Virus record (IMG/VR): IMGVR_UViG_3300033066_001528
Location: 32,001-96,000 of that record
DNA from: a virus
Taxonomy: Duplodnaviria > Caudoviricetes
Length of the DNA: 64,000 nt
Strand: one strand, 5' to 3'
Position numbers and translations under genes: made by a program. Position 1 is the first letter of the stretch. Each line of letters opens with the position of its first letter. The notes below the pieces were generated by a model, which was not told the DNA's origin, made no database searches, and saw only the letters and a program-made list of their open reading frames with translations. Positions 1,640 to 55,915 of this stretch are shown piece by piece.

Positions 1640-1918
1640 TCAATCCCAATTAAACCGTTTCATCTCGACGGTTAGGTCATTAAAAGCAAATCGTAAAGCT
1701 AGCATCGCTCTATGCATCTTCCTGTCATCCGACATAGACGGTTCGTCTCTAACGGCACTCTGCAGTTTGTAAAACCCATCGCTCATCTTGTAATAAGCTT
1801 CCCGAATGTTCCCATTGGAGACGGGGATACCACCTTCTTTGAGAATAGGCAGGAGCTCTTTGCGGAGCTCAGGATTTTGGTGTGCTAATCTAATAAGACG
1901 GGAACGTAGAGATTCCAT
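1640..1918 (-). CDS. Small protein carrying the repeated LRSxLIRLAH leader
   Basis: MESLRSRLIRLAHQNPELRKELLPILKEGG. Confidence 0.8.
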   Translation of the reverse strand: MESLRSRLIRLAHQNPELRKELLPILKEGGIPVSNGNIREAYYKMSDGFYKLQSAVRDEPSMSDDRKMHRAMLALRFAFNDLTVEMKRFNWD

Positions 1919-1945
1919 ACCAACAACTTGGTATGGAATCTCTAC
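1906..1945. promoter_or_regulatory. Perfect 18-bp hairpin covering the start codon of 1640..1918
   Basis: gtagagattccataccaa-caac-ttggtatggaatctctac. Confidence 0.7.
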
Positions 1946-1954
1946 CGTTAACCT

Positions 1955-4381: not shown

Positions 4382-4449
4382 TGATACCCCGTAATAGGTG
4401 GGATTGTTACCCTTCAGTTACGCCGGGAGAAGGAAAACTGACCCTCGAT

Positions 4450-5196
4450 TCAGATGGAGAATTTAGAGCCCCTAAGAACCCTACAATCGGGAAGAATACC
4501 TAGGGGATTGGGGGTACAATGCTTCTCCCACCACCCCCCCAATTTATTTGATACGACCCTAAAGAACTGACGGTCTTCAGAAAAAACCGAAGGTAGGGCT
4601 TCATGGGGTGTCCGGTCGGTCATCCAGTACAACTTGGAAGGCTCCATTTTCGAGGCTACCCCAAGGGGCTCTTTTTTCAAAGCCCCGAGTGCATCAACGT
4701 CCGTAGTGGTTGAGTCCCACACCCGGCAAGCGCCATTGGTGGAGGCCATGTAAACCCCGTCTTTACGATCGCAATGTCCATCCTGAAGAATACCTTGAAG
4801 GTACTCCAATCGTTGTCTCTGATCATAGGTCAGATCTTCCTTGCTGACCCGACGTAGTTCTGCGAGCTCCTCCAGAATGGATGTCCCACCACCAAACCTA
4901 CCAATGGATCCACCACCAAAGGTAAAACCACTCCCAAACGCGGACCAAAAAGATCCATTCCCGGCTTCGGTATGTACCCCACCCCTCCGCTGCGTTGTCC
5001 CCCCCTGAACCCGACCCTCTGTCACAGTAAGGTAAGCTACCTTTCCTGGGAGAATTGAATCACACATGGCAATGAGAGGAAGATACCCGTGTAGGTCTTC
5101 AGGAATTGTCGCCGGGTCGCCCATGATAAAAGGCATCATGTTGACGGACATAGCACGGGGTTTAGGGAACTGAACAAAATGAAGGGGTTGGTACAT
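4450..5196 (-). CDS. 2OG-Fe(II) oxygenase-like (DSBH) protein; untagged paralog of 18989..19726
   Basis: RRGGVHTE (HxE), RTPHEA (distal His), RQFFR; extensive identity with 18989..19726. Confidence 0.6.
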   Translation of the reverse strand: MYQPLHFVQFPKPRAMSVNMMPFIMGDPATIPEDLHGYLPLIAMCDSILPGKVAYLTVTEGRVQGGTTQRRGGVHTEAGNGSFWSAFGSGFTFGGGSIGRFGGGTSILEELAELRRVSKEDLTYDQRQRLEYLQGILQDGHCDRKDGVYMASTNGACRVWDSTTTDVDALGALKKEPLGVASKMEPSKLYWMTDRTPHEALPSVFSEDRQFFRVVSNKLGGWWEKHCTPNPLGILPDCRVLRGSKFSI

Positions 5197-5233
5197 ACCC
5201 CACTTACGAAAAGAGTTGGACAGAAGGGGAGAG

Positions 5234-6709
5234 TTACTGGGAAAGTTTCATTTTTTCAGCATAAAAAGAAATCACCTTTTCTGCCGTTGAAACATCTGAA
5301 CCGAAAAAGTTCAACCAATGGTCTCGAACCACGGTCAAAAGAGGTACGTGCGTCATCTTGGACCGCTTAATGAATTCCCGAATATGAGCTTGAACTTCAA
5401 GGGGATCCAGAGCATAGTCATTGACGGGGTCTCTTCCTTGAGGCAAAGAGGCGTTTTGCTTTGAGAATTGCACGCTATGAGTCAGCTCGTGGGCCAACAG
5501 TGATGCCAATTCTGCCTGTCCTTCGGATCTCTTGGGGGACAACCACACTTCCACACTCAAATCCCCATAATAGTTGTTACCATCATGATTTTTCCCGGTA
5601 CCTGGATTGTCGGAGTGTCGTGTGAGGACTGATAGGTCCGTAGTTCCGGTTGATTCTAACGAATCCAGAATCCATTGGTCTAAGTTAATGTGAATATGAT
5701 TGTATCTATCCTCCAACACATGAGAACCATCCCTCCATTTCAAACTGGCATCCCGTTTCTGCAGCTTGTAAACGGAGTTACACACAAGACTAGACAGTGC
5801 ATTAGCCAGCTTTGCTACATTGACTTTGGTCCCAAAAGAAGCTGATTTGTCGGATTTGTCATTAGCAGCTTCTAAAACCTTCTGCATGTCTTCATCGGAC
5901 AAACCCTCTGCCATGACATCGTGGATTGCTTGATAGACGTAGGTCAGTAGGATCTCCTGAAGCTCATCTTCGGAAGGACCATCCTCCCCAAATACATACC
6001 GCATCGCTACTCGCTCGGACGCCGGGCGTGCCGAGGCTAGGTGATCGGAGAAATGATGGAGACCGTGAAGAAAAGAGTGACCCACTTCAAAGTGAGTGAA
6101 CCCCTTATCCAGAATATGACTGACAGCTTTGAAGGCCACATGCTTGGCGAAAGAATTACCCAGAGTTCCGGCCATGGCCCCCAAGCCGCCTGTGGCCGCC
6201 ATCACAGTGCCAGCCACAACATAAACTCCAACTGCATAGAGAGCTTTTTTATCCGGTCCCGTCAGCTTCTCCGGTGGCTTCTTAAACACTTTCTTTACAG
6301 CCGATACGCCGTGTTTTATCTCATGAAGCTCTTCTTTGGTAGCGTTCTTCAAAAGAGTGGGGATAGCTTTGGTACCCTTCTTCATTAGCTGAACGGCTTT
6401 ATCTGTAGCCTCTTTGCGGTGATCCTTATCCACTATCAACCGCTGGACTTCTTTTGGAGCTTGTTTGAGGGCTTCCTTCGCTGCTGGGGCTAGGCTCTTG
6501 GCCTTCTCCAAAAATGACGATAGCATCCCTTTGAAGCCTTTGCTTCCACCATCATCTTTCGTGGGTTCGTCTTTTTTGGGCTTGGCATGGGCATCGGCTT
6601 GATCCTTTGTATCAAAGGATTTCGCCTCTCCAGCGGGACTTTGGGATCTCCATTTACCCTCGGGGGTCTTCCAGACCTCTCCGGGGTGTCTTTCTCGCGC
6701 TATCTTCAT
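5234..6709 (-). CDS. Multidomain protein with a C-terminal zincin (HExxH) domain; probably virion-associated
   Basis: LAHELTHSVQ...EVQA; internal RVAMRY motif; hydrophobic central segment; TGATG overlap with the upstream gene. Confidence 0.65.
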   Translation of the reverse strand: MKIARERHPGEVWKTPEGKWRSQSPAGEAKSFDTKDQADAHAKPKKDEPTKDDGGSKGFKGMLSSFLEKAKSLAPAAKEALKQAPKEVQRLIVDKDHRKEATDKAVQLMKKGTKAIPTLLKNATKEELHEIKHGVSAVKKVFKKPPEKLTGPDKKALYAVGVYVVAGTVMAATGGLGAMAGTLGNSFAKHVAFKAVSHILDKGFTHFEVGHSFLHGLHHFSDHLASARPASERVAMRYVFGEDGPSEDELQEILLTYVYQAIHDVMAEGLSDEDMQKVLEAANDKSDKSASFGTKVNVAKLANALSSLVCNSVYKLQKRDASLKWRDGSHVLEDRYNHIHINLDQWILDSLESTGTTDLSVLTRHSDNPGTGKNHDGNNYYGDLSVEVWLSPKRSEGQAELASLLAHELTHSVQFSKQNASLPQGRDPVNDYALDPLEVQAHIREFIKRSKMTHVPLLTVVRDHWLNFFGSDVSTAEKVISFYAEKMKLSQ

Positions 6710-18013: not shown

Positions 18014-18403
18014 TCAGGGGTATGAATTAGCGTTCTCAGACGGCATCAAATTCACAAAGTATCGGTGTGAGGCCACCGACCGACGTTCTGCTTCTTTCTT
18101 AAGGTCATCCAAGGCCACCCCCAGAAGCTGGTCCAATACCATAGCGTCCCCAAGAAGTCTGGCCCTAACGGTTTTTTCTGGTACTCCAGTAGCAAAACTA
18201 ATGCGACGCACGGACCCCTCAAGTGATCGGGTGAGGAGGCCACGGTAGGAATCCAGCCCCTTCTCCCACTGGCCCACGGAACGATAAAAAGGTTCTGCCG
18301 GGTTCATTCGTCCAGTATGAGCGGCTAGGATGGGGAGAAGATGCTTTCTTGTTTCCGGCTTATCATGGGCCAGACGTACAAGCTTTGAGTAAAGGCCCGG
18401 CAT
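18014..18403 (-). CDS. Leader-tagged small protein
   Basis: MPGLYSKLVRLAHDKPETRKHLLPILAAHTG. Confidence 0.75.
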   Translation of the reverse strand: MPGLYSKLVRLAHDKPETRKHLLPILAAHTGRMNPAEPFYRSVGQWEKGLDSYRGLLTRSLEGSVRRISFATGVPEKTVRARLLGDAMVLDQLLGVALDDLKKEAERRSVASHRYFVNLMPSENANSYP

Positions 18404-38825: not shown

Positions 38826-38865
38826 GTTATCGGAAATGGGAAGGGAAAGAGGATTTACCGTAAAC

Positions 38866-39177
38866 TCAGAAAGGACCCGAAAAATCCCTAGACCTAAACT
38901 TACGCTCGTATTCACCAACCGTAGATGAGGTGCTGAGAATAGACTTTCGTATCTCATCAAGAGCGGAATAAGCCACACCGTATCGAGACGCGGATCCCAT
39001 TAAGGAATCAACTTCTCTCATAAGGTCCAGCAAAGAGTCATGCATTGCATCCAAAGAATTAGCTAAATCATCTGGATTCTTAAAACGAGCAGTTTTTTTG
39101 AGTAGAGGAAGGATATGTGGTCTAGCTTCACGGTTCTCATGGGCCAGACGGATAAGTTTGGTACGAAGGGTAGTCAT
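38866..39177 (-). CDS. Leader-tagged small helical protein
   Basis: MTTLRTKLIRLAHENREARPHILPLLKKTA. Confidence 0.8.
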   Translation of the reverse strand: MTTLRTKLIRLAHENREARPHILPLLKKTARFKNPDDLANSLDAMHDSLLDLMREVDSLMGSASRYGVAYSALDEIRKSILSTSSTVGEYERKFRSRDFSGPF

Positions 39178-39199: not shown

Positions 39200-39751
39200 T
39201 TAACCCATTCGACCCGAACGCATCAATTGAATTTTCAAATCTTTGAATGCAGCATACATCCGTTCCCCTTCGGTAATGAATTTCCACAAAGGGGAGGCCA
39301 CTTTCTCACTGCCCCATCCTTCATTGGATACGGCTAAGTCAACAGCCCTAGAGCTATCCAGAAAGGATCGAATACCCTTGTGGACAAGGTCATAGGATGA
39401 CTGCATCCTCTCAGGATCAATCGGTGTTTGAGCCATTTTGGTTCCAAATTCAGGTTTAGTCCCCTTCATATATGTCCCACGAGGCCCCAAACCATCTTGG
39501 ATGTCACTAACCGATGTACGGATAGCAGCCAACTGCCTAATTGCAACGGATAGGTCCCTTGTTAATTCTCTATCAATGGAATCCCTACCGACCTTCCCCA
39601 GAAGAACCGAGACTTTTGACAAATAATCAAGAGCCTGAGTAAGAGTGTCAAAATTATCAGAGCTTGATTCCTTAAGTAAGGGCAAGAGATAATTTCTGAT
39701 CTTGGGGTTGTGATACGCCAGACGGATGACTTGAGATCGGAAAGGTACCAT
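39200..39751 (-). CDS. Leader-tagged helical protein
   Basis: MVPFRSQVIRLAYHNPKIRNYLLPLLKESS. Confidence 0.75.
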   Translation of the reverse strand: MVPFRSQVIRLAYHNPKIRNYLLPLLKESSSDNFDTLTQALDYLSKVSVLLGKVGRDSIDRELTRDLSVAIRQLAAIRTSVSDIQDGLGPRGTYMKGTKPEFGTKMAQTPIDPERMQSSYDLVHKGIRSFLDSSRAVDLAVSNEGWGSEKVASPLWKFITEGERMYAAFKDLKIQLMRSGRMG

Positions 39752-40912: not shown

Positions 40913-41488
40913 TCAGTGTCCAGCGTTTGCCGGAGTCTGATAGGTGGAACCCCCGGAAAACGGATGAGCCCACATATAGCTCTTCAGAGAGCACCCACCG
41001 TGAACGACCTTTCGAGCGTGAATCTCGGATGAGACGAAACGGGTAGGATCCGGGGCCACACTGGAATCACCCGTAGACCGAGAGGCGATCTCGCGAAGGT
41101 GCACCATCTTCCCGGTAACCTTGACGACGACGTAGAAGTCCACGTTGGTCTGCTCGTAGCCCCAGGAACACGACCAGATGTCACCGACCTTGATGGTCGC
41201 CAGCAGGGCAGCAGCCTCAGTGGCCTCATTAGCCTTACGGTGGGCCTTATCGTGCGCCGCATTCAGAGCATTCTGCACAAGCTGATCCTTGGCTTCCTCC
41301 CGCTGGGTCTCCGTCCGGTAGTAGGTGTTCACGAACGGCTTGGTCTGCTTGCCCTGGAACGCGACCAGAGCATAGGTGCCCCGACCCGTAGTATAGGAGT
41401 GGAGCTCCAGGTTCGTACCCGCGGGGGTCTCGGTGACGACCTGGACGTTACTGGGGACGTAGAAACTACGGGGAAGTGCAAACTTCAT
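40913..41488 (-). CDS. Hypothetical early-type protein with an SH3-like C-terminal domain
   Basis: KVGDI...SWGYEQTNVDFYVVV; GC-rich codons; AAGGAG SD. Confidence 0.7.
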   Translation of the reverse strand: MKFALPRSFYVPSNVQVVTETPAGTNLELHSYTTGRGTYALVAFQGKQTKPFVNTYYRTETQREEAKDQLVQNALNAAHDKAHRKANEATEAAALLATIKVGDIWSCSWGYEQTNVDFYVVVKVTGKMVHLREIASRSTGDSSVAPDPTRFVSSEIHARKVVHGGCSLKSYMWAHPFSGGSTYQTPANAGH

Positions 41489-43149: not shown

Positions 43150-45102
43150 TCACGATTTTCGAAACACCAGAACAGGTTCAGTTGCATCCCCACGGTTGAG
43201 TTTCGCCAAGGGCATAAGAAGAGTAGTGTCTAGACGAAATCCCTCTTCACGGGCTACCCCCACTGTCATATCCACCAGAGGTACAACCTGACCCTTCCCG
43301 ACAGTCAGGTCAGCGATGTTGAGTATGAGGGGACCCCCCAAAGGGAGAGATTTGTGGGATGACCTCACCACGGGCCGAAGAAACCCCTCAACCCACTGAG
43401 TCACGGTCGCACCGTGCTTCAACCAGGATTGTCCTTGGCTACGGGAATATCTCTCTCGATCGAAATAGGGGGGGGAGGTGAACACAAGGTCTACAGGAGG
43501 AGGGTTGAAATCCTCCGCTGGCAGACAATGAAGTTCTGCTTCGTACCCAAGGGTAGCTGCCAATTTGCGGTTCCCATCTAGGGTGTCCGGCTCTACATCC
43601 GTCCCTACGTATTTGACCCCAGCAAGATATGCTCCAAGGAGGCGACCCCCATAACCTGAACATGGATCCCACACAACTCCACCTTTAGGGCAGAAATGCT
43701 GGTAGATGAACTTGGCAACCGAAGGACGGAAGATAGAGGGTGTTCGGTGTTGCATAGTCACAGCGCGAAGCACTCGATGGGGAAGCACTGGATCCCCTAC
43801 CTTGAACTGGAATCGGATCGCATACTTGAGCTTTTCCGCTTTGTGCCAAGCCTCAAAAGCACTTTCTGCCCTACCCGCCGATGCCTTGAACCGATTGGGA
43901 AAGAAAGGGTTGCAAGCACCGCAACCAACAGGAGACCAGGGCTCAATCCTGTTCTCCTTGAGACCTATCACCAACGCAGAGAGTCTCCGAAGCTCATCCT
44001 CCCACCGTTGTTCGGAATGTTGAGGGAAAGGGAATTCAATATTGGAGAGGATCTTGTATACGTCCTCTACCCACTGCTTCTGCTCCAACTCGGGTAGGCC
44101 AGACCACCGTTTTGAGTCATAGTTAGCCAGGGCCACCTCGGCTGAGGTGCGAGAGAACAGTCGCCTGGGACGACCCATCTTCCTGGCTGCAACACCCACA
44201 CTCTTCAATCGACGGTGAACAGTGGACGAGCCAACGTCATAGATGTCTGCAATCTCATTGAAACTCATCCCTCCCTCGTAGAGATCCTTGACCTTGTCAG
44301 GGGTGAGCTCTTTGGCATTCCGGTCCCTATCCCTTCTAGCAGATTCTACAGGAAGCTTGTAGCTCATACATTCAGGGATGAGTGGTCCCACCATCTCGAA
44401 GAACTGGTCACTCTGCCCTGGGAACGCAATCACCGTATCGGAGGATGTAGTTCCGTGAACTTCTGGTCGGAATCCCAACTTGCGAAGAGCTTTGATTGCT
44501 CTCTTGAGGGTGATGTCCCCCAGACCAAACGTGATCTGGGGGTGAAACCTGTGTGCTAACCGTCCATCATCCAGGTACCAGACAGCCAGAACCAATGGTG
44601 TCATCTCATCCGACAGAGACACGGGAAACCTCTTCTTCCGATCAGGTGGTGGATAGAACAAATCATAGTAGGATCGAAGGGTTGGACAACTAACTGTAGT
44701 GAACCCCCTGCCGTGGAAGACCTTCCCTTCCCGGTCCGTCTTCGTGGTGTCAAAAACAGAAGACACGTAAGGACCGAGGATGTTGACCTTCCATTCCAGG
44801 TATTCAGCCTGAGCGATGCAATGACCTTCGTTATAGCGCGCTGATTCCTGACTGGTGGCATCCATGGATCCGTCCCCCAAAAGGCTCCCAATGAGAAGCT
44901 GGTGCTGCTCAGATGTCAAAGGGGGGAGCTGGGAGGTGATCCTCTGGCCCTTTGTACGTGTGGGTATCCCCCACTTCTTGCGTAGCCTACCCACCCGCAC
45001 CTGATTGATACCATACTGAATCGCAATCTCGGTCTCCGTGAGATTGTCGACTTCGTAAAGCCGACGGAGAATCTCTGGTGTCAAATCGATAAGTGAGAGC
45101 AT
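43150..45102 (-). CDS. LAGLIDADG endonuclease-HTH-DNA amino-methyltransferase fusion
   Basis: LIGSLLGDGS and AVWYLDDG; two HTH segments; DPCSGYGGR SAM motif and FTSPPYF catalytic motif. Confidence 0.85.
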   Translation of the reverse strand: MLSLIDLTPEILRRLYEVDNLTETEIAIQYGINQVRVGRLRKKWGIPTRTKGQRITSQLPPLTSEQHQLLIGSLLGDGSMDATSQESARYNEGHCIAQAEYLEWKVNILGPYVSSVFDTTKTDREGKVFHGRGFTTVSCPTLRSYYDLFYPPPDRKKRFPVSLSDEMTPLVLAVWYLDDGRLAHRFHPQITFGLGDITLKRAIKALRKLGFRPEVHGTTSSDTVIAFPGQSDQFFEMVGPLIPECMSYKLPVESARRDRDRNAKELTPDKVKDLYEGGMSFNEIADIYDVGSSTVHRRLKSVGVAARKMGRPRRLFSRTSAEVALANYDSKRWSGLPELEQKQWVEDVYKILSNIEFPFPQHSEQRWEDELRRLSALVIGLKENRIEPWSPVGCGACNPFFPNRFKASAGRAESAFEAWHKAEKLKYAIRFQFKVGDPVLPHRVLRAVTMQHRTPSIFRPSVAKFIYQHFCPKGGVVWDPCSGYGGRLLGAYLAGVKYVGTDVEPDTLDGNRKLAATLGYEAELHCLPAEDFNPPPVDLVFTSPPYFDRERYSRSQGQSWLKHGATVTQWVEGFLRPVVRSSHKSLPLGGPLILNIADLTVGKGQVVPLVDMTVGVAREEGFRLDTTLLMPLAKLNRGDATEPVLVFRKS

Positions 45103-45273: not shown

Positions 45274-46155
45274 TCAGCGAGTGACGGTGAGGCGAACGAG
45301 ACCCTTGGGGTTGTAGGCCCCAATACCGAGGTTCTCGAACATTGAGAAACCGATGGTGCGAGCCTTTGGATCGTCGGCACTCAGGACGGTCAGTTCGGTA
45401 CGAACGGGGATACGGCCAAACATCTCCGGTTCGCAACACACGTACACCGTTCCTGCGGGAACGAGACGCGAGGTGATAACCTGGGCTCCCCAGAGGGTAG
45501 CCTGAAGTCCGGTCTTGAGGAGAACAGCCTGCGATTCAATGTCGAGAATGTCCCGACCGAACTTACGGATGTCCGCGTAATCCCGTGCGTTCATAAAGAC
45601 GCGCGCAACCCGGAGGTCATGCCGCTCAATGAGTGCCCAAGCGTCAGCGAGAACTGCACCGTTAAGCGGAGCTACAACGGGGAGGTCTGGGTTGGTTCCA
45701 CCAGGAACGCTATCAAATCCGTTAACGGCGATAGCGTCAAGGACACCGAAGACACGTATATCTTCAGCGGCCTGAATGGAAGCCCGACCCAAATCTTGAG
45801 CGCGCTCGATCAAATCGAATCGACGCTCACGGATCTGGGTTAGTGGGATCTCTGGGTTCGAGGCAAGCTCAAACAGAGGGAAGATCACACGTCGTGGCTT
45901 GGTGATGGCGAGGATGTTCTCCCCTTCCTCACCGACCACGTATGCGGTTACATCCGGATCCTTGTCGTAGATTGGCAGAGCCCCATCGGGGAGCTGTTCA
46001 ACCAGGAAGGTCTTTCGACCAACGGACATATAGTCCCGACGAAGACGGAGTGGCTGAGTCATAGAAGCTGCCAGCTTCTGACGACCGGCTGCTGTCCGGA
46101 TGAAGTCACCAATCAAGGCTTGCTTGTTGGCGTTCTCAACATTAGGGTTAGTCAT
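45274..46155 (-). CDS. Major capsid protein (HK97 fold)
   Basis: Follows protease, scaffold and decoration genes; ED..VF, VFMN..Y.DIRK, LWGAQVITSR..P.G.VY, ENLGIG..NP.G pattern. Confidence 0.85.
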   Translation of the reverse strand: MTNPNVENANKQALIGDFIRTAAGRQKLAASMTQPLRLRRDYMSVGRKTFLVEQLPDGALPIYDKDPDVTAYVVGEEGENILAITKPRRVIFPLFELASNPEIPLTQIRERRFDLIERAQDLGRASIQAAEDIRVFGVLDAIAVNGFDSVPGGTNPDLPVVAPLNGAVLADAWALIERHDLRVARVFMNARDYADIRKFGRDILDIESQAVLLKTGLQATLWGAQVITSRLVPAGTVYVCCEPEMFGRIPVRTELTVLSADDPKARTIGFSMFENLGIGAYNPKGLVRLTVTR

Positions 46156-47070: not shown

Positions 47071-48507
47071 TCACTTGAAGATTTCGCTGATGTTGGGAGC
47101 GGACTCCCAAAGCTTCGAGAGATTTTCCACGTCACGATCCGCGACAGCCGTTGGGACCGAACCAATGGCGCGAACACCATTGCTAGCCTTACGTGGCTGT
47201 GGCCTTACGGCAGCGGTCTTGTTGGAGCGGGCTTCTTTAGGTGTCTTCTCCTCTGCCTTCTCTTCCTTTACGTCGGATTTGGCAGCAGCATCTTCCTTCT
47301 TCTCGTCATCTCCGGCAAACTTGCTGCCGTAGAGGGAGTTGAGCTCCATGTCATCGAAACCACCATCATCAACGAGACCCATTGGGTCCTCATCAATTAC
47401 CACGTCCTCATCCACAACGGGAACACCATCGAGTACCGCATCATCAGCTAGCATGTCATCGAGCATCGCCTGCTCGTCGTCGCCCAGCATAGCTTCCTTG
47501 GCATCCTCCTTAGGGGCATCTTCCTTCAGCATTTCTGCCAGGAGAGCTTCGTCCTCGTCATCCTCATCCGAAGCCGTCATACCCTCATCAAGCATGGCCG
47601 CCAAAAGAGCCTCATCCTCATCATCTTCGGACGCACCCTTAGTCTCTTCGTCCAACATCGCAGCCAAAAGGGCTTCGTCCTCATCCCCAGCCAGATCCGC
47701 TAGTTTCCCCTGTTGACGGTAATTATAGTGCTTGGGGTCATTCTGGTCCCCGGGCATATCGGATGCCTTGCGTGAACGGGACCGTGCTTCCTTCTTGGTT
47801 TCGGACTTGTCCTCATCCTTGCTATCGGACTTGTCCTCATCCTTATCCCATTGCTTCTTAAAAGCCTCGGGAACCTCCCCGGCGGCTTTCGCAACACGAG
47901 TCCAATACTTAGCAAGACGTTGGAAGCGAGCTGCCTTCTTACCAGCAGTTTCCTCACCGGCTTCATCCTCATCGTCAGTATCTTCGTCTTCGTCAGCCTT
48001 TTTAGAAGAGGTCTTATCCTCGTCCTCTTCCACCATAAGGTCATCGGCTTCCTTGCCCTCTTCCTCGTCTTCGGCAAGGCGCTGAAGAGTGGCCTGGATC
48101 TGACGATCTGGGAGACTCATGAGATCAACGGCCTGATCTTCAATGGCAAGTTGAGGGGCACCCTGACCCAGCATGGCGCTAGCAATTCGAATGCACTTTG
48201 CAGCCTTCTTCTCCATCGCCTTAACGAGGCTAGCGGAAACACCACGTGGGAAATAGTGCTTTGGATCGGTGGCCGGATGGCCTTGAGGCTCATCGGTGCC
48301 AGGAAGAGCAGGGTGAGCGCTGTTCGGGTAAGGACCTTTGGTTGGGTCCTCCGCCCAGGAGGACGTGTCACCGTTCTCGTAATCATGAGGGCCGGGATCC
48401 TCATAAGCTGCAGGATGGTCTAACGTCTCCGGCTCATTATAGCCAGGAGTTGCTGGACCGGGGGAAGCTTTGCGATTGGTCTTGGCCCAGGTAAGTCTGG
48501 TTCTCAT
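47071..48507 (-). CDS. Putative capsid scaffolding protein (very acidic)
   Basis: Lies between protease and decoration/MCP; repeated DEDEALLAAML; many K/R-x-A motifs; ATGA overlap at 48507. Confidence 0.7.
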   Translation of the reverse strand: MRTRLTWAKTNRKASPGPATPGYNEPETLDHPAAYEDPGPHDYENGDTSSWAEDPTKGPYPNSAHPALPGTDEPQGHPATDPKHYFPRGVSASLVKAMEKKAAKCIRIASAMLGQGAPQLAIEDQAVDLMSLPDRQIQATLQRLAEDEEEGKEADDLMVEEDEDKTSSKKADEDEDTDDEDEAGEETAGKKAARFQRLAKYWTRVAKAAGEVPEAFKKQWDKDEDKSDSKDEDKSETKKEARSRSRKASDMPGDQNDPKHYNYRQQGKLADLAGDEDEALLAAMLDEETKGASEDDEDEALLAAMLDEGMTASDEDDEDEALLAEMLKEDAPKEDAKEAMLGDDEQAMLDDMLADDAVLDGVPVVDEDVVIDEDPMGLVDDGGFDDMELNSLYGSKFAGDDEKKEDAAAKSDVKEEKAEEKTPKEARSNKTAAVRPQPRKASNGVRAIGSVPTAVADRDVENLSKLWESAPNISEIFK

Positions 48508-49955
48508 TTGATTTCCTTCTGTTTCCCGTCGGCAAGCCGACTTTGATGTGCTGACATGACGGCTCCAATACGAATGATAGATTTGATTTCCGGTGATGTG
48601 GGTGCCCTGTTTAGGGCTTTGCCGCAAGCATCCAGAAATTGTTGGAAGCTACCATATCGATTAGAGGGTCCAACCCGTAGGGCGGCCGAATAGACAGTTT
48701 GTGGAACTGAAATACCAAAAACGGTATTAAGACCCTCTACCCGCCTCACAACATCGGCTGTTGTTTTAGCCGTAGCTACAATCATCCTAAGAGAAGACCG
48801 ATAGAGCCCACCCTGTTTGATGATAGTGTCATTGGGTGAATCTGAAGAAGGTATAGAAGGTACTGGACCCTGTAATTGGTCCCGCACCCGCTTCTTAACT
48901 CTATCCACAAGAGCGTTAGTTAGCTCCGTCTCCGCGTCATCAAGGATCCCCTTGGATGGCTTAGGTGATTCCTTTTTCTCACCATCCAAATTGGCGGGCT
49001 CCCCAAATGGGTTCTCGTCCGGCTGGTACCCCTCATCCTCGGACCCAATCTTCAAATCCCGAGCTACTTTCTGAAAAGCCGTATGGACCACTTCGGGAGG
49101 GGCGGTGGTAAAAATCTTCTCCAAAAGGGCAGCGGTACGAGCCGAGTCTTTAGAGCTTATTGAAATAACATTCCGTGCCACAGCCCCTTTGAAGGCCGGG
49201 ACTTCCACCCAGGAAGCCTCAATAAATTTAACCCCTCCGGTGGGCTCAATTCCCTCATAGCCGCAGAGCTCTGCAATTCTGTGCTTCCGACCCGACTCAT
49301 CAAAAAAAGTATTGCCCTTCTCGTGAAGAACATGTGTACACATTTCGGTTTCATCGGCCGCCCAATTACCGCATTTTGTGCATATGGAGCCGTCAATCGA
49401 GCAACCCATTGAAAGAGTGCTAATTCTCCCGCTCTCTATGTCTTCAATGAGTTGAGTATGCTTTCTGTCATTCGCGACGAGAATGTCAACATATAGGCTG
49501 TCACCTATATCTCTAGCAACGGCATCAAGGATTCTCCCCTTGGAGAGCTCCTCAATCTGGACATGCTCAAGAAACGAATGGCCACCGATGAAAGTTGGAT
49601 AAGACTTGAGGAGGACAGGACGGGAGAAAGCATCAAGGTTGTTGTTGATGTAAATATCACACTCTGGCTTCACCCGATAGGAAGCGGTTTTACGAACAAC
49701 CTTTTTTCCCCCAACAACAATAGACCCAATCTTCTCTCCCGGCACGGCTACTGTGTCTACGCTTGCGACAATAGTAGCGTGTGTCAGAAGGTACTTCGAG
49801 GGGTCAAATTCGGAGCCGAGAATTTTAGAGGCTTGGGTGACAAGATTGCGATCGGCTCTAACTTTTCCGCTAGCCACTCGAATATTGTCCCAACCCCCGT
49901 TGTTGAGATTGGTGGTTTTGACAACTCTTGCATTTGCATATCGCAGAAAAGGCAT
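48504..49955 (-). CDS. Prohead maturation protease with a Zn-ribbon insertion
   Basis: LEH...KGRILDA, LSMGC..CTKC..C.H, FIEASWVEVPAF (HK97/herpes-like protease pattern). Confidence 0.8.
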   Translation of the reverse strand: MPFLRYANARVVKTTNLNNGGWDNIRVASGKVRADRNLVTQASKILGSEFDPSKYLLTHATIVASVDTVAVPGEKIGSIVVGGKKVVRKTASYRVKPECDIYINNNLDAFSRPVLLKSYPTFIGGHSFLEHVQIEELSKGRILDAVARDIGDSLYVDILVANDRKHTQLIEDIESGRISTLSMGCSIDGSICTKCGNWAADETEMCTHVLHEKGNTFFDESGRKHRIAELCGYEGIEPTGGVKFIEASWVEVPAFKGAVARNVISISSKDSARTAALLEKIFTTAPPEVVHTAFQKVARDLKIGSEDEGYQPDENPFGEPANLDGEKKESPKPSKGILDDAETELTNALVDRVKKRVRDQLQGPVPSIPSSDSPNDTIIKQGGLYRSSLRMIVATAKTTADVVRRVEGLNTVFGISVPQTVYSAALRVGPSNRYGSFQQFLDACGKALNRAPTSPEIKSIIRIGAVMSAHQSRLADGKQKEIK

Positions 49956-49962
49956 GTAGAAC

Positions 49963-50498: not shown

Positions 50499-53400
50499 TT
50501 ATAGATAAAGACTAAAAAGGGAAGCTACCTTTTCCGCTTCATCGGACTCATCCGCTTCAGCAGCCTTCTCGTCTTCCTCTTTCTTCTCATCTTCCGCAGC
50601 CCTCCTGGACTTGGAAGCCTTCTTCTCTTCCTTTTTGTCCTCGGGCTTCTCTTCCGCTGCGTCAGACTTGTCACTCTCTTTTTCGCCCTCTTCCATTTCG
50701 GCAAGAACACGAAGAGTGGCTTCTTTCACAGCCTTGTTAAGAAGAGCCGCAAGCTTAGGATCCGCCTTATGTGCCGCCGCATTAGAGGCAAGCGACCCTG
50801 ATTCTTGTTTGGCGTCGAGTTGCTCGAAGTTGGCTTGGGTGAAATGACCTGCCATAAACTTCTGGGAAGGATCGTTTACGAGGGGGCCAGGAACCTTCTT
50901 CCCAATCGTAGAAGCATCAAATTGACCCTTCTTCTGGAGGAAATCGGAAACCCTGTCACAACGTTCCGCCATATCCATGGCGACCTTTGGGTGAATGCCA
51001 AGAGCTTCGTGATGCTCCTGGAAGAGAGTGGCCACGTTATCAAGTGTAGCAACAACGCGCCGAATACCTTCTGCTGATGCCTTTTTCTTCATGATTTGGT
51101 TCCTTGAGATAGGGAGTACCATCCGATAGCTTGGACGAATAGTCGAATGATTGAAAGCCATAATTTTCTTGCCGCGCATCTTCATGAGTTGAAGAAGCCA
51201 CCACGGAGTTTTCCCCTTGCTGGATCCTGGACCATTAGGGGTTTTTCCCCCTTTAGACCCTGGTACCTCGTCTCCCGGCTCACCCTCGGCATCGGCATCA
51301 TTCAGGATAGCATTAACCACACTTTGCCGTAAAAAAGCTGCCTGTTCATTAGAGAGGGCCGAACGACCACCCTTAGCCGGATCCTCATAGACCCCCGATT
51401 TCAGGGGCCCTAACATATCTTTCACTCTGTCCGGAGCATAGTCCTCTAAAGTGGCAACAAAATCATCGTCACTCATTGCCGCCATAGCATTATGAACTGC
51501 CTTCCGATATTTAGGAGACTCGGGACCCTCGGCCAGATCAAATATATAGTTGGACCCAGGGTCCACTTTACGAAGAGCCTTCACTAACCCCGTAGTCAAC
51601 CCTTTTTCTCCCCGTAGATGTTTGGAGACTTTCAGAGCCGACAACTCATCCGCCAAATCCTGACGTTGAGACTTCAAGTCATCGGATACCTCATCCCCGG
51701 CTTCCTGGATCTGCTTGTCTAAAGCAGCCAGATCGGATTCCAGTTTACCGCCAAGGGTATCTACAATATCTGGAGGAAGATATTCAAACTTATCCAAAGC
51801 CCTATGGCGAAACCCATCCCCCTCGTCCTTTTTTCGAGTCAAAGGGGATGTCATTTTTGCAAGCACTGACAAAGCGGCATGGTGCCTTGCAACACTTGCG
51901 ATAATATCCTCATTAGCCTTATCCAGCTCTTTACGGGCATCGTCCAAACCATCGTAAGTCTCCTGGGCTTTTGCCAAGTCGTCTTGAGCTTCCTGCAAGT
52001 CCTCTTCAGAAGACTCATATTTGGATTGCATGTCCTGAACCAACTTCTGAAGCTTCTTCAACCGTCCTTTCACGGCATCGGTGTTTTTACTTTCCTCATC
52101 CAGGAGGTCGTCTACCTCCTTCTGAGTTGTTTTCAGCACATCCTCGGCTTCTTTCAAGTCATTAAGAGCTTTGTCCCGACGTTGCTGAGAGGACTGAAAT
52201 GCCTTCTTAGACTTTTTGAGTTGGGATTTAGCCCCCTCGATCTCTTTGTGGAGACTATCCCTATCCCGGATGGCGGTTTCAATCTCCTTCTTTGATTTTT
52301 CGGGGGAGAAACCCTCTTTCCCCAACCATTTTACAACGGAACGAAAGTCCCCAGTGTCCAAGGCTCTTGCAACGTCGTCTTGGGCTCTTTGGCTTTCTTC
52401 TTTGATGGCATCAACCACCCTACGCCCAAGATCGGGATCCCCATCCGATACTTGACCGTGAAGCTTCTGCAAATCTCTGGCATCCTCTACGGATAGTCCT
52501 TTTTTAAGGTCACCAAGGTCCCGAGACCCATCGTCTCCCTTTGGTTTGGGAGCATCCTTTTTAGGTGAGTCCCCGTTACCGGAATCCTTTTTGTCACCAG
52601 ATGAGTCACTATCCTTAGGGGGGGAACCATCCGGGGTTTTGTCCCCCTTTCCTTTGGTGTCACCATCGTCAGACTCACCGTCATCCTTTTTAGGATTTTT
52701 CACGGAGTGGTTTTTTGGGTCAGCGTCTGGATGGTCCTTAAGGTAGGCATCCAAATCCTCCTGCGTTGGAAACTCCAATGCTCGAAGATATCGTGAAGCA
52801 ACCCTTTTATAGTTGAGACTTAGATCCCTATCCTCGCTAGATGTGTCCGGGTCACTATCTACAATTTGATGTTTTTGAAGGTCCTTACGGGGTGGCTTTT
52901 TCTTCGGAGCAGAGTTGACCATATCCGCGACTTGGTCATCCTCTTTCTCAGCCTGAGTCTTTGTCCCGTAAACAAGAACTGATCCCTTCTTATTCAGTTC
53001 CTTAAGGATGGTACCATCGTGGACGTAGGACTCTTCTAAGTTGGGAACAAGATACTGGCTCTTAAGGGTTGATGCCCCGTGCCCAACAATCTCAGCCACG
53101 GTCTCCAAAGCCTTTTTGAACTCGGCCTTGAGAATCTTATCTTTCTCTTTTCGATCACGTGGTAGGTTCTTGGGGCCATTTTTCCGCACTTCGGTCAGAG
53201 CCTTACACATTTCCTGGTTTGCCCTGAAACCGCGGATATCCTTAGCCGTGATGTCAAACTCTTTAAGGTAAGCGTTGACATCCTCTGGATCAACACCCAC
53301 ATCACCATCCTCCAAGAGACGATCCGTACCTTTCTTTCCCTTAAGGGCCTTTTTGAGAGCCGTTAAAGTTGGGCCGGATTCAACAACTTTCTCGTGATCT

Positions 53401-53792
53401 ACGCCTGATTTCCCAACATACGTGATCGTGGCTTTGTCGCCTCTAACTTTAATATGATCCGCGGTCCACCCTGTCACCCCATAATGACCATCCTCTGCAC
53501 TATCATGGTTACCAACGCGCTCCATTGTGCAGTCCATAAGGGCAACGGCCAAAGCCGTAAGTCTCTTGTGTGGGTCTTCACAAGTCAAATCCTTTTTGAC
53601 TTTTGCCCGTAAGTCAGAAATACTCTTACGGAGACCCTCCACTCTGTCAGCCTTTTCTCGATTCCTATTGGAAACCTGACGGTCGGAATAGACATAGACA
53701 ATTGTCTCTCCCCCGTCCTGGGACTTGACCTTCTTCTTTTCTTTGTACTGGGCGTACCGAAGGGCCACCACTGCTGATAGGGGAATACCCAT
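50499..53792 (-). CDS. Type IB DNA topoisomerase catalytic domain fused to long charged/coiled-coil regions
   Basis: RVGN, YVGKSGV, KDIRGFRAN and VGH...KSQYL give the R-K-R-H-Y pentad; about 800-aa C-terminal extension. Confidence 0.85.
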   Translation of the reverse strand: MGIPLSAVVALRYAQYKEKKKVKSQDGGETIVYVYSDRQVSNRNREKADRVEGLRKSISDLRAKVKKDLTCEDPHKRLTALAVALMDCTMERVGNHDSAEDGHYGVTGWTADHIKVRGDKATITYVGKSGVDHEKVVESGPTLTALKKALKGKKGTDRLLEDGDVGVDPEDVNAYLKEFDITAKDIRGFRANQEMCKALTEVRKNGPKNLPRDRKEKDKILKAEFKKALETVAEIVGHGASTLKSQYLVPNLEESYVHDGTILKELNKKGSVLVYGTKTQAEKEDDQVADMVNSAPKKKPPRKDLQKHQIVDSDPDTSSEDRDLSLNYKRVASRYLRALEFPTQEDLDAYLKDHPDADPKNHSVKNPKKDDGESDDGDTKGKGDKTPDGSPPKDSDSSGDKKDSGNGDSPKKDAPKPKGDDGSRDLGDLKKGLSVEDARDLQKLHGQVSDGDPDLGRRVVDAIKEESQRAQDDVARALDTGDFRSVVKWLGKEGFSPEKSKKEIETAIRDRDSLHKEIEGAKSQLKKSKKAFQSSQQRRDKALNDLKEAEDVLKTTQKEVDDLLDEESKNTDAVKGRLKKLQKLVQDMQSKYESSEEDLQEAQDDLAKAQETYDGLDDARKELDKANEDIIASVARHHAALSVLAKMTSPLTRKKDEGDGFRHRALDKFEYLPPDIVDTLGGKLESDLAALDKQIQEAGDEVSDDLKSQRQDLADELSALKVSKHLRGEKGLTTGLVKALRKVDPGSNYIFDLAEGPESPKYRKAVHNAMAAMSDDDFVATLEDYAPDRVKDMLGPLKSGVYEDPAKGGRSALSNEQAAFLRQSVVNAILNDADAEGEPGDEVPGSKGGKTPNGPGSSKGKTPWWLLQLMKMRGKKIMAFNHSTIRPSYRMVLPISRNQIMKKKASAEGIRRVVATLDNVATLFQEHHEALGIHPKVAMDMAERCDRVSDFLQKKGQFDASTIGKKVPGPLVNDPSQKFMAGHFTQANFEQLDAKQESGSLASNAAAHKADPKLAALLNKAVKEATLRVLAEMEEGEKESDKSDAAEEKPEDKKEEKKASKSRRAAEDEKKEEDEKAAEADESDEAEKVASLFSLYL

Positions 53793-53822
53793 GTCGGAGT
53801 GGGGTTTATGGGGGGAATACCG

Positions 53823-54170
53823 CTAGAGACTGAGATCAATTCGGTATCTAAACAAAGCGTCCGGACGCTTTGCAAAAGTAATGGACCCACCTTCGCCCAT
53901 ATCATAAACAATCACCGATCCACCATTGGCGACATTTGAGGACACCTGTTTGAACCCCAAAGCCTTCACCGTTTGAAGGACACGAACGAAAGAAGCGGTG
54001 ACATTCCCCTCCCAATGAGCTTGGTTCGATTCCACAATAGTCCCCACGGGGAATTCTAGTGTTTTCAAGAACTCATGGGTGAGGGAGGAGGTTTTGAGTA
54101 GGGGTAAAAGGTGTGGCCTAAGGGAAGGTTTTTGGTAAGCCAATCGAATAAGGTTAGATCGGAGAGTCAT
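53823..54170 (-). CDS. Leader-tagged small protein
   Basis: MTLRSNLIRLAYQKPSLRPHLLPLLKTSS. Confidence 0.8.
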   Translation of the reverse strand: MTLRSNLIRLAYQKPSLRPHLLPLLKTSSLTHEFLKTLEFPVGTIVESNQAHWEGNVTASFVRVLQTVKALGFKQVSSNVANGGSVIVYDMGEGGSITFAKRPDALFRYRIDLSL

Positions 54171-54196
54171 GAGGGGCTACCAACTAGGTACTTGAA

Positions 54197-55288
54197 TCAG
54201 GGGCGGGTTTTAATGTAGAACTTACCCTGGTACTTCTCGATGGCGGAAACAGGAGCACCCATAGTTGTTAGGTGTTCAAAAGCCTTTATATAACTATCCA
54301 GGGGCTCGTAATGAGTAACGAAAGACCAGCGAGACACCCCCTTTGGGACGGCGAAGTCTCTTTTTCGGACCATTGATGGGGTCACAGGGGGGGTGGATAA
54401 CTCTGGAACCTTGGATTCATACTCCATCAAGTGATCAAAAGCCCGATCTTTAGCTTTCTCCAAAGCATCAGCATAACGGTAAACATTGGTCTCGGACCCC
54501 ATCAGCAATTTTGACTGAAAAAAGACGAAACGTCGAAGGTCAGACGGATCCATAATGCGGGATAAAAACTTAAGCCTTGGCTCCTCATTTGCTTTCTGCA
54601 AATTCCAATCAAGAAAGCAACGCCACTTCTGACCGTAGATATCCGGCATATTATCGGAGAGTGTTTTTGAGGATCGAGCTAAAGCCACGTAAGCAACGTC
54701 AGGACCATATTTGTCCAGATCACCCCAAGAGACAAGAATGATGTTTTCCTGTCCTCTAGACCGATTGATTCTAGTCTTTACTTTGCGGGGTAGCCATTGC
54801 CTGGAAACACATTCCTTGAGAAACCCAACGGCATCGAACCAAACAGCCCCATCTTTTTGCGTTACAAACTCATCACCCAAAGTCTTTGAGGCAACATGAT
54901 TTGAATGGCCAAACATGACCCTACATGCAATTTTTGAAGCAAGCCTAGATTCGGCTGTCATGTCTCTTAGGTCAAAACATTTGTCAATAAGTTTTTTTCT
55001 CAGGGCTCGTAATTCCTGGGCTACCGATCTCGGATCATCGCCATCAATCCAACGAATCTGCAACTGACGAAGCTCATCATCCTTACCATCCATGAGGGAG
55101 AACCACTTACCCTTGTTGTCAAGAGAAACACCCTCTTCAAACAGCGCCTCAATTGTGAGAAAATGCTTACGAATACAATCCTCGCATCTTTTTCGAGGAT
55201 TATTCAAATGGTCCTCTAGAAGAGCCAACTGCTTGCAAACCTCTCTCATATTATAGAGAGGGTGCATGACGGGTAAAAGGTCAGCCAT
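54197..55288 (-). CDS. Hypothetical protein with an N-terminal Cys/His metal-binding-like domain
   Basis: REVCKQLALLEDHL...RCEDCIRKHF. Confidence 0.7.
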   Translation of the reverse strand: MADLLPVMHPLYNMREVCKQLALLEDHLNNPRKRCEDCIRKHFLTIEALFEEGVSLDNKGKWFSLMDGKDDELRQLQIRWIDGDDPRSVAQELRALRKKLIDKCFDLRDMTAESRLASKIACRVMFGHSNHVASKTLGDEFVTQKDGAVWFDAVGFLKECVSRQWLPRKVKTRINRSRGQENIILVSWGDLDKYGPDVAYVALARSSKTLSDNMPDIYGQKWRCFLDWNLQKANEEPRLKFLSRIMDPSDLRRFVFFQSKLLMGSETNVYRYADALEKAKDRAFDHLMEYESKVPELSTPPVTPSMVRKRDFAVPKGVSRWSFVTHYEPLDSYIKAFEHLTTMGAPVSAIEKYQGKFYIKTRP

Positions 55289-55915
55289 TCATCGTCTCGT
55301 ATTGCGTGTCACATAATTGCCAACAGCATAAGACAGGTCTTCGAAAGCAGACCTCAATTTCTCCCGAGCATCTTCTACCTGTTCGATCTCCTTGAGTATT
55401 TTTGGATCCATGGTTCCGCGAACATCCTGTAAGTATTGAAAAGTGGCTCCGGAGAAACTCTGGTACAGCCTCTTAAACCGAGATTCGGAAGAAATCAAAT
55501 CAGCAAGGGACCCGGCGAATTTTTCCATGAATACATTGATCTGCCTTCTCATGGACACAAGGCTAGCGTTATAGGCCGTAGGCACCCGACCCCCGGTCTG
55601 ATCAACGTTACGTTTGAAGATTTCTAGGACTTTATCAAGGTCACTGTTTGCCTGGATCAAAAGCTTCCTGACATCTTGAAGATTATCCTCATCAATGTCG
55701 GCAAGCCCCACTAGCCCATCCAGCCCTTTACGGAACCCTGACCCATAGGCATCCACGTATTCCAAAATACCGGAGGATGAAAGGGACAACATCCGAACGG
55801 AATGTACGAGATCATCTTCGGCATCCGAAGACTTTTTCAAAATCGGTAGTAGATGGGGCCGAAGCTCCGGATTAGAACGGGCTAGTTTGATAAGCTTAGA
55901 GCGGAGAGAAGGCAT
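55289..55915 (-). CDS. Leader-tagged helical protein
   Basis: MPSLRSKLIKLARSNPELRPHLLPILKKSS. Confidence 0.8.
   Translation of the reverse strand: MPSLRSKLIKLARSNPELRPHLLPILKKSSDAEDDLVHSVRMLSLSSSGILEYVDAYGSGFRKGLDGLVGLADIDEDNLQDVRKLLIQANSDLDKVLEIFKRNVDQTGGRVPTAYNASLVSMRRQINVFMEKFAGSLADLISSESRFKRLYQSFSGATFQYLQDVRGTMDPKILKEIEQVEDAREKLRSAFEDLSYAVGNYVTRNTRR

Follow-up and report, generated by a model that had tools for sequence, protein, structure and literature searches.

What role does a short peptide play when it is carried by many proteins that are otherwise unrelated to one another? This question is raised by the 64,000-nucleotide window (the whole stretch of DNA analysed here) of a 123,912-bp viral record, in which 11 ORFs encode copies of one tag, whose 24-residue core has the consensus LRSxLIRLAHxNPxLRxxLLPLLK. 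An HMM built from these copies gave exactly 11 matches on all six frames of the window, each at E ≤ 2e-15 (next best E = 0.011), and all 11 sites listed in the preliminary description were thereby recovered. The wider HMM scan proposed there brought the count to 13 copies in the record, and the 17 other large tag-bearing contigs have 2–15 tags each. The density of tagged genes is about 5 per 100 kb of genome.

Ten of the window copies directly follow the start methionine of minus-strand genes, the ATG of each being at the higher coordinate. These genes are located at 1640–1918 (92 aa; tag residues 4–27, core at 1838–1909), 18014–18403 (129 aa; the most divergent copy, LYSKLVRLAHDKPETRKHLLPILA), 18408–18956 (182 aa; no Pfam or PHROG family), 18989–19726 (245 aa), 32748–33038 (96 aa), 33303–33623 (106 aa), 38866–39177 (103 aa), 39200–39751 (183 aa), 53823–54170 (115 aa) and 55289–55915 (208 aa, helical). 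The remaining copy is internal to a 213-aa protein encoded on the plus strand at 28400–29041 (tag residues 92–115, DNA 28673–28762), where it lies between parts of 89 aa (N-terminal) and 96 aa (C-terminal). As this copy is preceded by a GTT codon and an alternative start is absent nearby, we consider it genuine. The cargo parts of the window proteins are mutually unrelated (best pairwise BLASTP E = 0.9), as the preliminary description had claimed of the domains downstream of the tag.

A natural control for portability is provided by an untagged 248-aa paralogue (4450–5196, minus strand) of the 18989–19726 cargo. The two proteins are 43% identical by BLASTP (E = 2e-59), with the alignment starting at residue 2 of the untagged protein and at residue 31 of the tagged protein, and phrog_8970 likewise covers the tagged protein only from residue 31. 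This cargo is cupin/PhyH-like, with PhyH/cupin clusters of the Atlas as a structural lead (TM 0.50); an ESM Atlas search with the cargo of the 208-aa tagged protein returned no usable match. In addition, the protein P0064 consists of a tag and a homologue of the untagged protein of 5234–6709, aligned from residue 2 of the latter, and P0041 is a fusion of two units that are separately tagged genes in this window. The whole 1640–1918 unit recurs in two other proteins: P0041, where it follows an internal tag, and P0060, where it is N-terminal. Together, these cases support the earlier proposal that the tag is a portable add-on to unrelated proteins, with homologous cargos occurring both with and without it, as expected for the modularity of a transferable address peptide.

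The cargos, which number in the dozens in this phage clade, are folded proteins of 60–400 aa that are small and fast-changing, and those tested had no orthologues in related loci. T4 internal proteins show a similar turnover of cargo (PMC9026906). The domains recognised in the tagged proteins were ART-PolyVal (three members), pentapeptide repeats, DUF5710, DUF2958 and WGR, and one cargo had a weak RelA/SpoT match. Pentapeptide repeats, DUF5710, DUF2958 and WGR are presumably also of the polyvalent or head-packaged type, as ARTs and RelA/SpoT domains are. The latter two are named among such phage domains in published work (PMC5512222, PMC9503650). The recognisable cargos thus resemble injected effectors, in keeping with the diverse effectors that had been suggested from the sequence.

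The earlier term "leader" is apt for 10 of the 11 window ORFs, but elsewhere the tag is also internal, C-terminal and present in multiple copies. The 150 best global hits had 114 N-terminal, 54 C-terminal and 178 internal matched stretches, and the counts in related viral contigs were 107, 6 and 27, respectively. Multi-tag proteins have two to five confident copies (up to seven matched stretches) spaced on disordered acidic linkers. An AF2 model of the three-tag protein P0013, made from a single sequence, folded each tag as a helix-kink-helix (pLDDT 70–86) joined by linkers with pLDDT below 50, and from the fifth residue after K24 onward the information content of the tag alignment is at most 0.7 bit. 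Both the linker pLDDT and the low information content point to a flexible, poorly conserved linker to the cargo, as in an address peptide, and the tag is predicted to be an independent helix-kink-helix module on flexible tethers.

Position independence and multiple copies on disordered linkers would also suit a docking or co-assembly handle for a hub other than the capsid, either a conserved phage or host protein or other tags. In that case a single complex, body or condensate would collect the tagged proteins, and the multi-tag proteins would serve as multivalent cross-linkers. We regard this role, including the cross-linking, as possible but doubtful. A candidate hub was not found, and there was no confident tag-tag packing in the P0013 model, although with a pTM of 0.20 from a single sequence this is weak counter-evidence.

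The codon positions of the tag copies provided information on what is conserved. Identity across copies was 0.85 at codon position 2 and averaged 0.33 at position 3, and only 31% of identical tag residues were encoded by the same codon. The near-random third positions and the low codon sharing indicate that the copies are old and are maintained by selection on the peptide. The preliminary description had instead envisaged a DNA cassette copied onto new genes, based in part on the starts at 18956 and 19726; recent copying of this kind did not hold, as the tags of that pair have only 76% DNA identity. A related explanation holds that no protein function is conserved and that the copies instead represent a nucleic-acid or translation-initiation element placed at gene starts, or a DNA cassette that has spread recently. 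The placement of 10 of the 11 window copies at gene starts, six of them with GGT just before the ATG, would fit such an element. However, this explanation is refuted by the codon-position pattern, true internal and C-terminal copies exist, and a search upstream of the tagged genes for a common promoter or Shine-Dalgarno motif found none. We consider it scarcely credible.

At the protein level, conservation across unrelated cargos is 90% or higher at 14 of the 24 core positions, including A9, H10, P13, R16 and P21, and tags on non-orthologous cargos in related loci are 68–74% identical. The mean net charge of the tag is +3.6 and it has two amphipathic helical segments with a hydrophobic moment of about 1.5, properties that would be appropriate for a cationic membrane- or envelope-targeting helix placing accessory proteins at the host membrane. 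Lipid-binding helices, however, tolerate wide sequence variation, and the tag is far more sequence-specific than those known. Internal copies between folded domains and the strict clade restriction described below also fit a protein partner better, and membrane targeting is therefore unlikely.

Worldwide, the tag was found on 3,375 protein clusters. It is not covered by any Pfam or PHROG family, has no sequence relative in the PDB (best match E = 0.78), and searching the literature for the motif as text returned only unrelated matches and no paper on it; a 24-residue module this widespread is thus unannotated. Tags were absent from cultured phages, and the sole GenBank match was an unannotated metagenomic record, LR745208.1. 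A search of 185,579 cellular genomes gave a single stray relative, which was on a MAG contig of 1.3 kb. A word-indexed homologue search with the leader alone gave only four candidates. The preliminary description had allowed that the motif might correspond to a DNA-binding or oligomerisation domain that is already known and common in non-phage proteins; the single cellular relative and the PDB result speak against this. Based on these searches, the tag is effectively confined to phages, and to one clade of uncultured huge phages.

By eye, the tag has some likeness to LRV/HEAT-type repeats. No tagged protein in the window matched LRV (PF01816) at E ≤ 1, and LRV repeats were identified in 2 of 106 tag-bearing proteins (P0020 and P0050 are not those two). 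An LRV solenoid protein as the tag receptor was not supported, as neither G000 nor G001 encodes a PF01816 protein.

All genes of the head module described here are on the minus strand. The portal protein (56120–59407, 1095 aa; phrog_16240, E = 1.8e-26) probably has an intein, as it matches intein-containing proteins, and the 208-aa tagged gene is directly downstream of it. The 115-aa tagged gene is directly upstream of a gene for a multidomain protein with a topoisomerase-IB domain (50499–53792, 1097 aa; Pfam Topoisom_I, E = 4.8e-24). The topo-IB gene is between those of the portal and protease, a position conserved in L084 and L085, and its product has modules that also occur after the tag in tagged proteins of other phages. 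In L084, too, a tagged gene (99 aa) is found upstream of the topo-IB gene, from which it is separated by a 225-aa gene. The candidate processing enzyme is a head-maturation-protease-like protein (48504–49955, 483 aa; phrog_18299, E = 6e-11; phrog_2774, E = 2.5e-21) that had no match in Pfam, NCBIfam or the PDB, and whose AF2 model from a four-sequence alignment had a mean pLDDT of 38.8. It is followed by an acidic, K-x-A-rich protein in the scaffold position (47071–48507, 478 aa, pI 4.3) and by an HK97-fold major capsid protein (MCP) (45274–46155, 293 aa; phrog_2522, E = 3e-48; PF25209). Among the head proteins, the MCP has the highest conservation (86–89%, versus 43–68% for the others); the same MCP, at 83–91% identity, is present in 12 of the 17 other large tag-bearing contigs, and it is seen on up to 49 contigs per cluster. 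Judged from sequence, the tag is coupled to a single conserved HK97 capsid lineage. A co-fold of the tag and MCP alignments, run without controls, scored 0.00, below the mark, and weighs neither way on binding.

We also considered a degenerate tag in the scaffold-position protein, which was rejected (hhalign probability 0.65%; BLAST only E = 0.009 over 21 residues). With the scaffold-position protein untagged and unrelated to the tag, the tag is not simply the scaffold's own capsid-binding element.

The junction after the tag had been described as K-x-A/G/S, and this holds as a family consensus: K-[KETSQ]-A follows the tag, with K24 in 60% and A26 in 54% of 117 distinct tags. In proteins from elsewhere, tag copies are usually flanked by K-x-A-(S/A), and internal copies have K-x-A on both sides at 3–5 times background. 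Each of the four scaffold-position proteins was also enriched in K-x-A, by 3–6 fold (P ≤ 0.01), and this enrichment was not found in the portal, terminase, protease or p363; it may partly stem from repeat duplication inside low-complexity proteins. The parallel drawn earlier with prohead proteolysis was supported to the extent that both a head-maturation-protease-like gene and the K-x-A motif are present in the window.

Based on these data, the best reading of the tag is as an address label loading proteins into the capsid, which we hold tentatively and at somewhat less than an even chance. Capsid targeting is favoured by the single conserved HK97 capsid lineage, by the presence of a head protease and an acidic scaffold-like protein along with the portal and MCP, by K-x-A being common to tag junctions and the scaffold-position protein, and by cargo that is typical of injected effectors and turns over rapidly. 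The cargo repertoire and the K-x-A link to the scaffold-position protein also fit virion loading better than a non-capsid hub. Against capsid targeting, the prohead proteases of T4-type and giant phages cut at motifs that end in Glu, unlike K-x-A; Glu was at position 25 in 36 of the 117 tags, giving L-K-E in that minority only.

The location of the tagged genes also counts against capsid targeting and is more in keeping with a non-capsid hub. Clustering with head genes was rejected: tagged genes are scattered across the genome, with 18 within 12 kb of the MCP versus 19.1 expected (permutation P = 0.58). The multi-tag P0005 and P0013 genes adjoin signalling-type genes (kinase, NUDIX and PP2C) rather than head genes; they are not between protease and MCP, and a role for these proteins as the main scaffold was rejected.

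A kinase gene is 2.5 kb from the tagged gene trio and another adjoins P0005; at the same position beside P0013 is a 565-aa gene without a Pfam match. These neighbours raised a further role for the tag, as the recognition leader of a phage-encoded modifying enzyme (e.g., a Ser/Thr kinase), either as a substrate-docking motif or as a RiPP-type leader, since in RiPP logic one leader serves many different substrates. However, only 2 of the 18 tag-bearing records had a Pkinase match. About 6.5 matches were expected from completeness in the other 16 and none was seen (chance roughly 1e-4), and in a 92%-complete genome Pkinase is about 100 kb from the nearest tag. Kinase docking was thus disfavoured and, with cargos that are folded proteins and not peptides, the modifying-enzyme role is very unlikely.

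Known systems provide several precedents for a capsid address. The P22 scaffolding protein has a C-terminal coat-binding helix-loop-helix, a small basic two-helix module that docks inside an HK97-fold shell, and the tag may be likened to it. The P22 module, however, is part of the scaffold itself. Encapsulation peptides of encapsulins and bacterial microcompartments are short helices, attached through flexible linkers to either end of a protein or between its domains, that recruit diverse enzymes into a protein shell, which in encapsulins is HK97-fold. They are shorter and less conserved than the tag and act in cellular compartments, whereas the tag sits in tailed-phage genomes with portal and terminase genes.

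The T4 capsid-targeting sequence (CTS) of IPI-III and Alt is an N-terminal peptide of about 10 residues, transferable to other cargo, whose targeting and cleavage after Leu/Ile-x-Glu have been demonstrated; Alt has propeptides at both termini (PMC9026906). The tag resembles it as a short, transferable N-terminal peptide (13 copies in the record) common to unrelated, fast-evolving, often basic accessory proteins, and a prohead protease and acidic scaffold are present, here as predicted from genes. Unlike the CTS, the tag has a 24-residue core predicted as helix-kink-helix, is not restricted to the N-terminus, has no sequence similarity to the CTS and has a K-x-A junction.

Phage polyvalent proteins (Iyer et al. 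2017, PMC5512222) overlap with the tagged proteins in cargo domains (ART-PolyVal, weak RelA/SpoT) and in effector-unit fusion and fission, and packaging and processing into units is predicted for both. Pfam's LPD families include none that matches the tag. Iyer et al. propose processing by embedded metallopeptidase (MPTase) domains, and a term search of that paper found no mention of a common address or boundary peptide. Many head and ejection proteins of the giant phages SPN3US and phiKZ have removable propeptides of 20–254 residues that are cut after an X-Glu-ending motif, and in the part of that source used here these are not described as one common portable sequence (PMC10052503). The tag is similar in being a peptide on many proteins, although its removal is putative.

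For the tag's binding partner, capsid entry, cleavage and injection, we infer the following sequence of events. The tag would be a self-contained basic docking peptide, fused via flexible junctions to many unrelated accessory proteins. During prohead assembly it would bind a single phage component that is highly conserved, either in the interior of the capsid shell or in the core. Tagged proteins would be enclosed in the prohead and later delivered along with the DNA. The cargo may be released by the head-maturation protease, cutting at the K-x-A-(S/A) brackets on the sides of the tag that face the cargo; the same cuts would split multi-tag fusions into units. That the huge-phage clade uses such a position-independent, protease-bracketed plug-in address to load dozens of interchangeable effectors is conceivable, but we rate it well short of probable; such a cargo system would be unrelated in sequence to the T4 CTS.

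Were the tag a capsid address, it would mark, by sequence alone, the proteins delivered into cells by a large, abundant clade of uncultured huge phages, so that early anti-defence effectors could be searched for systematically in metagenomes. Foreign proteins could likewise be loaded into HK97-type shells with a tag that is compact, structured and usable at either terminus. If its destination is not the capsid, the tag would still be an unannotated organising principle of huge-phage proteomes that deserves definition as a family.

The eleven tag copies in the window translate to the consensus LRSKLIRLAHxNPxLRxHLLPLLK. Ten are on minus-strand open reading frames, with the tag starting two to three residues past the start Met (ATGs at 1918, 18403, 18956, 19726, 33038, 33623, 39177, 39751, 54170 and 55915), and one occupies residues 92–115 of a plus-strand frame (28400–29041). 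This internal copy is genuine, as it is preceded by a GTT codon and has no alternative start nearby. The preliminary description had placed the tag on eleven otherwise unrelated proteins, and a tag profile run against the six frames of the window recovered every site and no others (all E ≤ 2e-15; next best match, E = 0.011). With the tag removed, no pair of cargo parts was related (best BLASTP E = 0.9), and only one cargo matched a Pfam or PHROG family. Extending the scan to the full genome and related phages, as had been proposed, identified 13 copies in the whole 123,912-bp IMG/VR virus record, of which the window makes up bases 32001–96000 and which CheckV estimates to be 29% complete, and 113 tag-bearing stretches in IMG/VR, the longest contig among them measuring 485 kb. 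Gene starts across the window lack an obvious Shine-Dalgarno sequence, and GGT lies directly 5' of the ATG in six of the ten genes whose tag is N-terminal.

Among GenBank phage records the tag was found only in the unannotated metagenomic LR745208.1, and 185,579 cellular genomes, scanned with a strict pattern, yielded a single relative, on a 1.3-kb MAG contig. All 17 large contigs tested had 2–15 tags each, at a density of about 4.9 per 100 kb; in twelve the major capsid protein (MCP) of this record is present at 83–91% identity, and the remaining five are 18–38%-complete fragments. The record represents a large tailed phage and has genes for a clamp loader, a UvsX-like recombinase and a Dda-like helicase. 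A complete head module lies on the minus strand of the window, in the order terminase large subunit (59938–63120), 1095-residue portal (56120–59407), tagged 208-residue protein (55289–55915), the 363-residue unknown p363, tagged 115-residue protein (53823–54170), 1097-residue topoisomerase-IB protein (50499–53792), a 173-residue protein, head-maturation-protease-like protein (48504–49955), very acidic 478-residue protein in the scaffold position (47071–48507, pI 4.3), a 224-residue protein and HK97-fold MCP (45274–46155). This order is kept in three related contigs. Relative to the three related loci the MCP is 86–89% identical and other head proteins 43–68%; tags on non-orthologous cargos are 68–74% identical, and no orthologues of the two head-module cargos were found in those loci.

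Several features of this region were observed in passing. Residues about 650–840 of the portal match intein-containing proteins (Tes, Pol II large subunit, RNR), so the portal probably carries an intein. The scaffold-position protein is 26% Asp+Glu with repeated DEDEALLAAMLDE segments, and its C-terminal motif, DLSKLWESAPxxSxxF, is conserved across the clade. A protein of about 1100 residues lies between portal and protease throughout the clade; the topoisomerase-IB domain of the window copy is of eukaryotic type, and the counterparts at loci L084 and L085 of related contigs combine HAD_SAK_1 with topoisomerase-IB. We consider the window protein a candidate packaged enzyme. Directly downstream of the MCP gene is a gene for a 650-residue LAGLIDADG/HNH/HTH protein (43150–45102, minus strand); L084 and L086 also have LAGLIDADG genes at this site, L085 has none there, and the site is an insertion hot spot for mobile endonucleases. 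Elsewhere on the minus strand, an untagged 692-residue multidomain protein (22029–24107) has a polyvalent-type architecture of GNAT, HAD_SAK_1 and DUF6782 metallopeptidase-like domains.

Portability of the tag was demonstrated by homologous proteins that differ in having it. The tagged 245-residue protein at 18989–19726 and an untagged 248-residue paralogue at 4450–5196 (both minus strand) are 43% identical (E = 2e-59), in an alignment that begins at residue 31 of the former and residue 2 of the latter; phrog_8970, a family from sequenced phages, likewise covers the tagged protein only from residue 31 on. This pair belongs to a family typical of phages, with a predicted cupin/PhyH-like fold (TM 0.50 to PhyH clusters), and an "oxygenase-like" identity is only a lead. 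In P0064, from another phage, a tag precedes a homologue of the untagged 491-residue protein at 5234–6709, aligned from residue 2 of the latter, and homologues of the untagged p191 (40913–41488) sit behind tags in P0015, P0016, P0052 and P0068. Because such tagged and untagged homologues exist, tags have been gained and lost on homologous cargo. P0041, also from another phage, consists of an N-terminal tag with a homologue of the record's tagged 425-residue protein (E = 4e-59), and behind these an internal tag with a homologue of the tagged 92-residue protein at 1640–1918; internal tags mark the joints of fused units.

Pairwise identity among the 13 copies at codon positions 1, 2 and 3 was 0.63, 0.85 and 0.33, and the same codon was used at only 31% of identical residues. 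Since position 2 is conserved, position 3 is not and codons mostly differ, selection acts on the peptide, which removes a promoter, ribosome-binding site or recombination site as the explanation and refutes a nucleic-acid element as the cause of conservation. No shared motif was found upstream of the tagged genes. The suggestion of a recently copied DNA cassette did not hold, as the 18956/19726 pair is only 76% identical in DNA, somewhat over the 60% mean.

In a set of 53 tags from unrelated cargos, conservation reaches at least 90% at 14 of the 24 core positions and collapses four residues past K24 (the last core residue); the mean net charge is +3.6, with two helical halves, each amphipathic. 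A membrane helix is unlikely given that conservation is position-specific. When P0013, a natural protein with three tags, was modelled with AlphaFold2 from its single sequence, each tag formed a helix-kink-helix (pLDDT 70–86), inter-tag linkers had pLDDT < 50, and there was no confident tag-tag packing (pTM 0.20); this weakly suggests, from one sequence without an alignment, that tags may be independent modules on tethers. No PDB sequence resembled the tag (best E = 0.78). A likeness to one LRV repeat, in its length of 24 residues and the pattern L-x-x-L-A-x-(D/N)-P-x-(L/V)-R, is by eye only and no test supports membership: LRV matched no tagged window protein and no protein of the record or a 485-kb relative. 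Two of the 106 proteins in the census of tag-bearing proteins are LRV-positive.

The tag had been described as an N-terminal leader, which is true of the ten window copies and of 107 copies in 78 loci from related contigs, but these loci also have 27 internal and 6 C-terminal copies. Against 1.84 billion representative proteins the profile matched 3,375 clusters (E ≤ 0.001); the 150 best hits, which are biased to multi-copy proteins, contained 114 N-terminal, 54 C-terminal and 178 internal stretches, with a per-protein maximum of five confident copies, or seven stretches by the search's own count. Proteins with C-terminal copies typically stop a few residues from LLPLL(K), and non-N-terminal copies are mostly preceded by G-K-K-A-S or similar rather than Met. 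Both flanks carry the same bracket pattern at 3–5 times background frequency: K(-4) 42%, A(-2) 41% and S(-1) 43% upstream, and K24 43–60%, A26 43–54% and A27 about 38% downstream.

Portable, position-flexible, conserved and clade-bound, the tag has the features of a transferable address peptide. Targeting to the capsid, the mechanism originally proposed, is the best available reading; it draws on analogy and circumstantial evidence and we hold it tentatively, as something short of probable. The maturation-protease-like gene and the acidic scaffold-position protein are both present, and the rapid replacement of cargos while the peptide stays constant has a parallel in the T4 internal proteins (PMC9026906). 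The post-tag junction, K-[KETSQ]-A, shows 3–6 fold enrichment over composition in all four scaffold-position proteins (P ≤ 0.01 each, with counts possibly inflated by internal repeats) and no enrichment in portal, terminase, protease or p363. A shared motif is expected if one protease acts on both; a single enzyme would then shred the scaffold and free the cargo. The T4 and SPN3US protease sites (PMC9026906, PMC10052503) end in Glu, unlike the K-x-A junction. The protease-like protein of the window gave no match in Pfam, NCBIfam or the PDB that would place it in a protease family.

Of the 83 N-tagged cargos taken from related phages, most are orphans; the recognizable domains are ART-PolyVal (three members), pentapeptide repeats, DUF5710, DUF2958 and WGR. 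The last four are linked with injected effectors. A homologue of the tagged 425-residue protein has a weak RelA/SpoT match, and segments of the head-module topoisomerase-IB protein match what follows the tag in tagged proteins elsewhere. According to PMC5512222 and PMC9503650, head packaging and injection are likely for phage ARTs and for polyvalent-protein domains, among them RelA/SpoT.

Tagged genes are not enriched within 12 kb of the MCP gene (18 observed, 19.1 expected, P = 0.58), and therefore the pair of tagged genes lying between portal and protease does not count as positional evidence. The scatter is not evidence against capsid targeting either, given that the genes for T4 internal proteins are likewise dispersed. 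The scaffold-position protein has neither a tag nor profile similarity to one, and the genes for the multi-tag proteins P0005 and P0013 adjoin kinase, NUDIX and PP2C genes. A handle that docks on a hub outside the capsid, or that self-assembles, is the serious alternative, if a less likely one. A tag docking proteins to a kinase is disfavoured by test: Pkinase occurs in only two of 18 tag-bearing records, is separated from the nearest tag by about 100 kb in the 92%-complete genome, and had about 6.5 hits expected from completeness in the other 16 records with none seen (chance roughly 1e-4).

The record also contains six occurrences of another short motif, R[VIL]A.R[YFW], where shuffles lead one to expect 0.2; these include residue 330 of the topoisomerase-IB protein, at a domain boundary, residue 5 of 24975–26270 (plus strand), residue 233 of 5234–6709 and residue 161 of 38136–38957 (both minus strand). 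This motif may represent a second tag or a shortened one. Seven of 116 tags in related phages (loci L035, L039, L037, L044, L043 and L073) are followed by a recurrent module, about 25 residues long and similar to EFPTQEALDKYLKEHPDADKSKHTV, which resembles residues 334–396 of the topoisomerase-IB protein, immediately past its RVASRY motif.

No text matching the tag was found in the searchable literature. Together, these data confirm and extend the original observation: the tag is an undescribed, phage-restricted, portable 24-residue module, and the accessory proteins that it defines make up a large set in a single abundant clade of huge phages.
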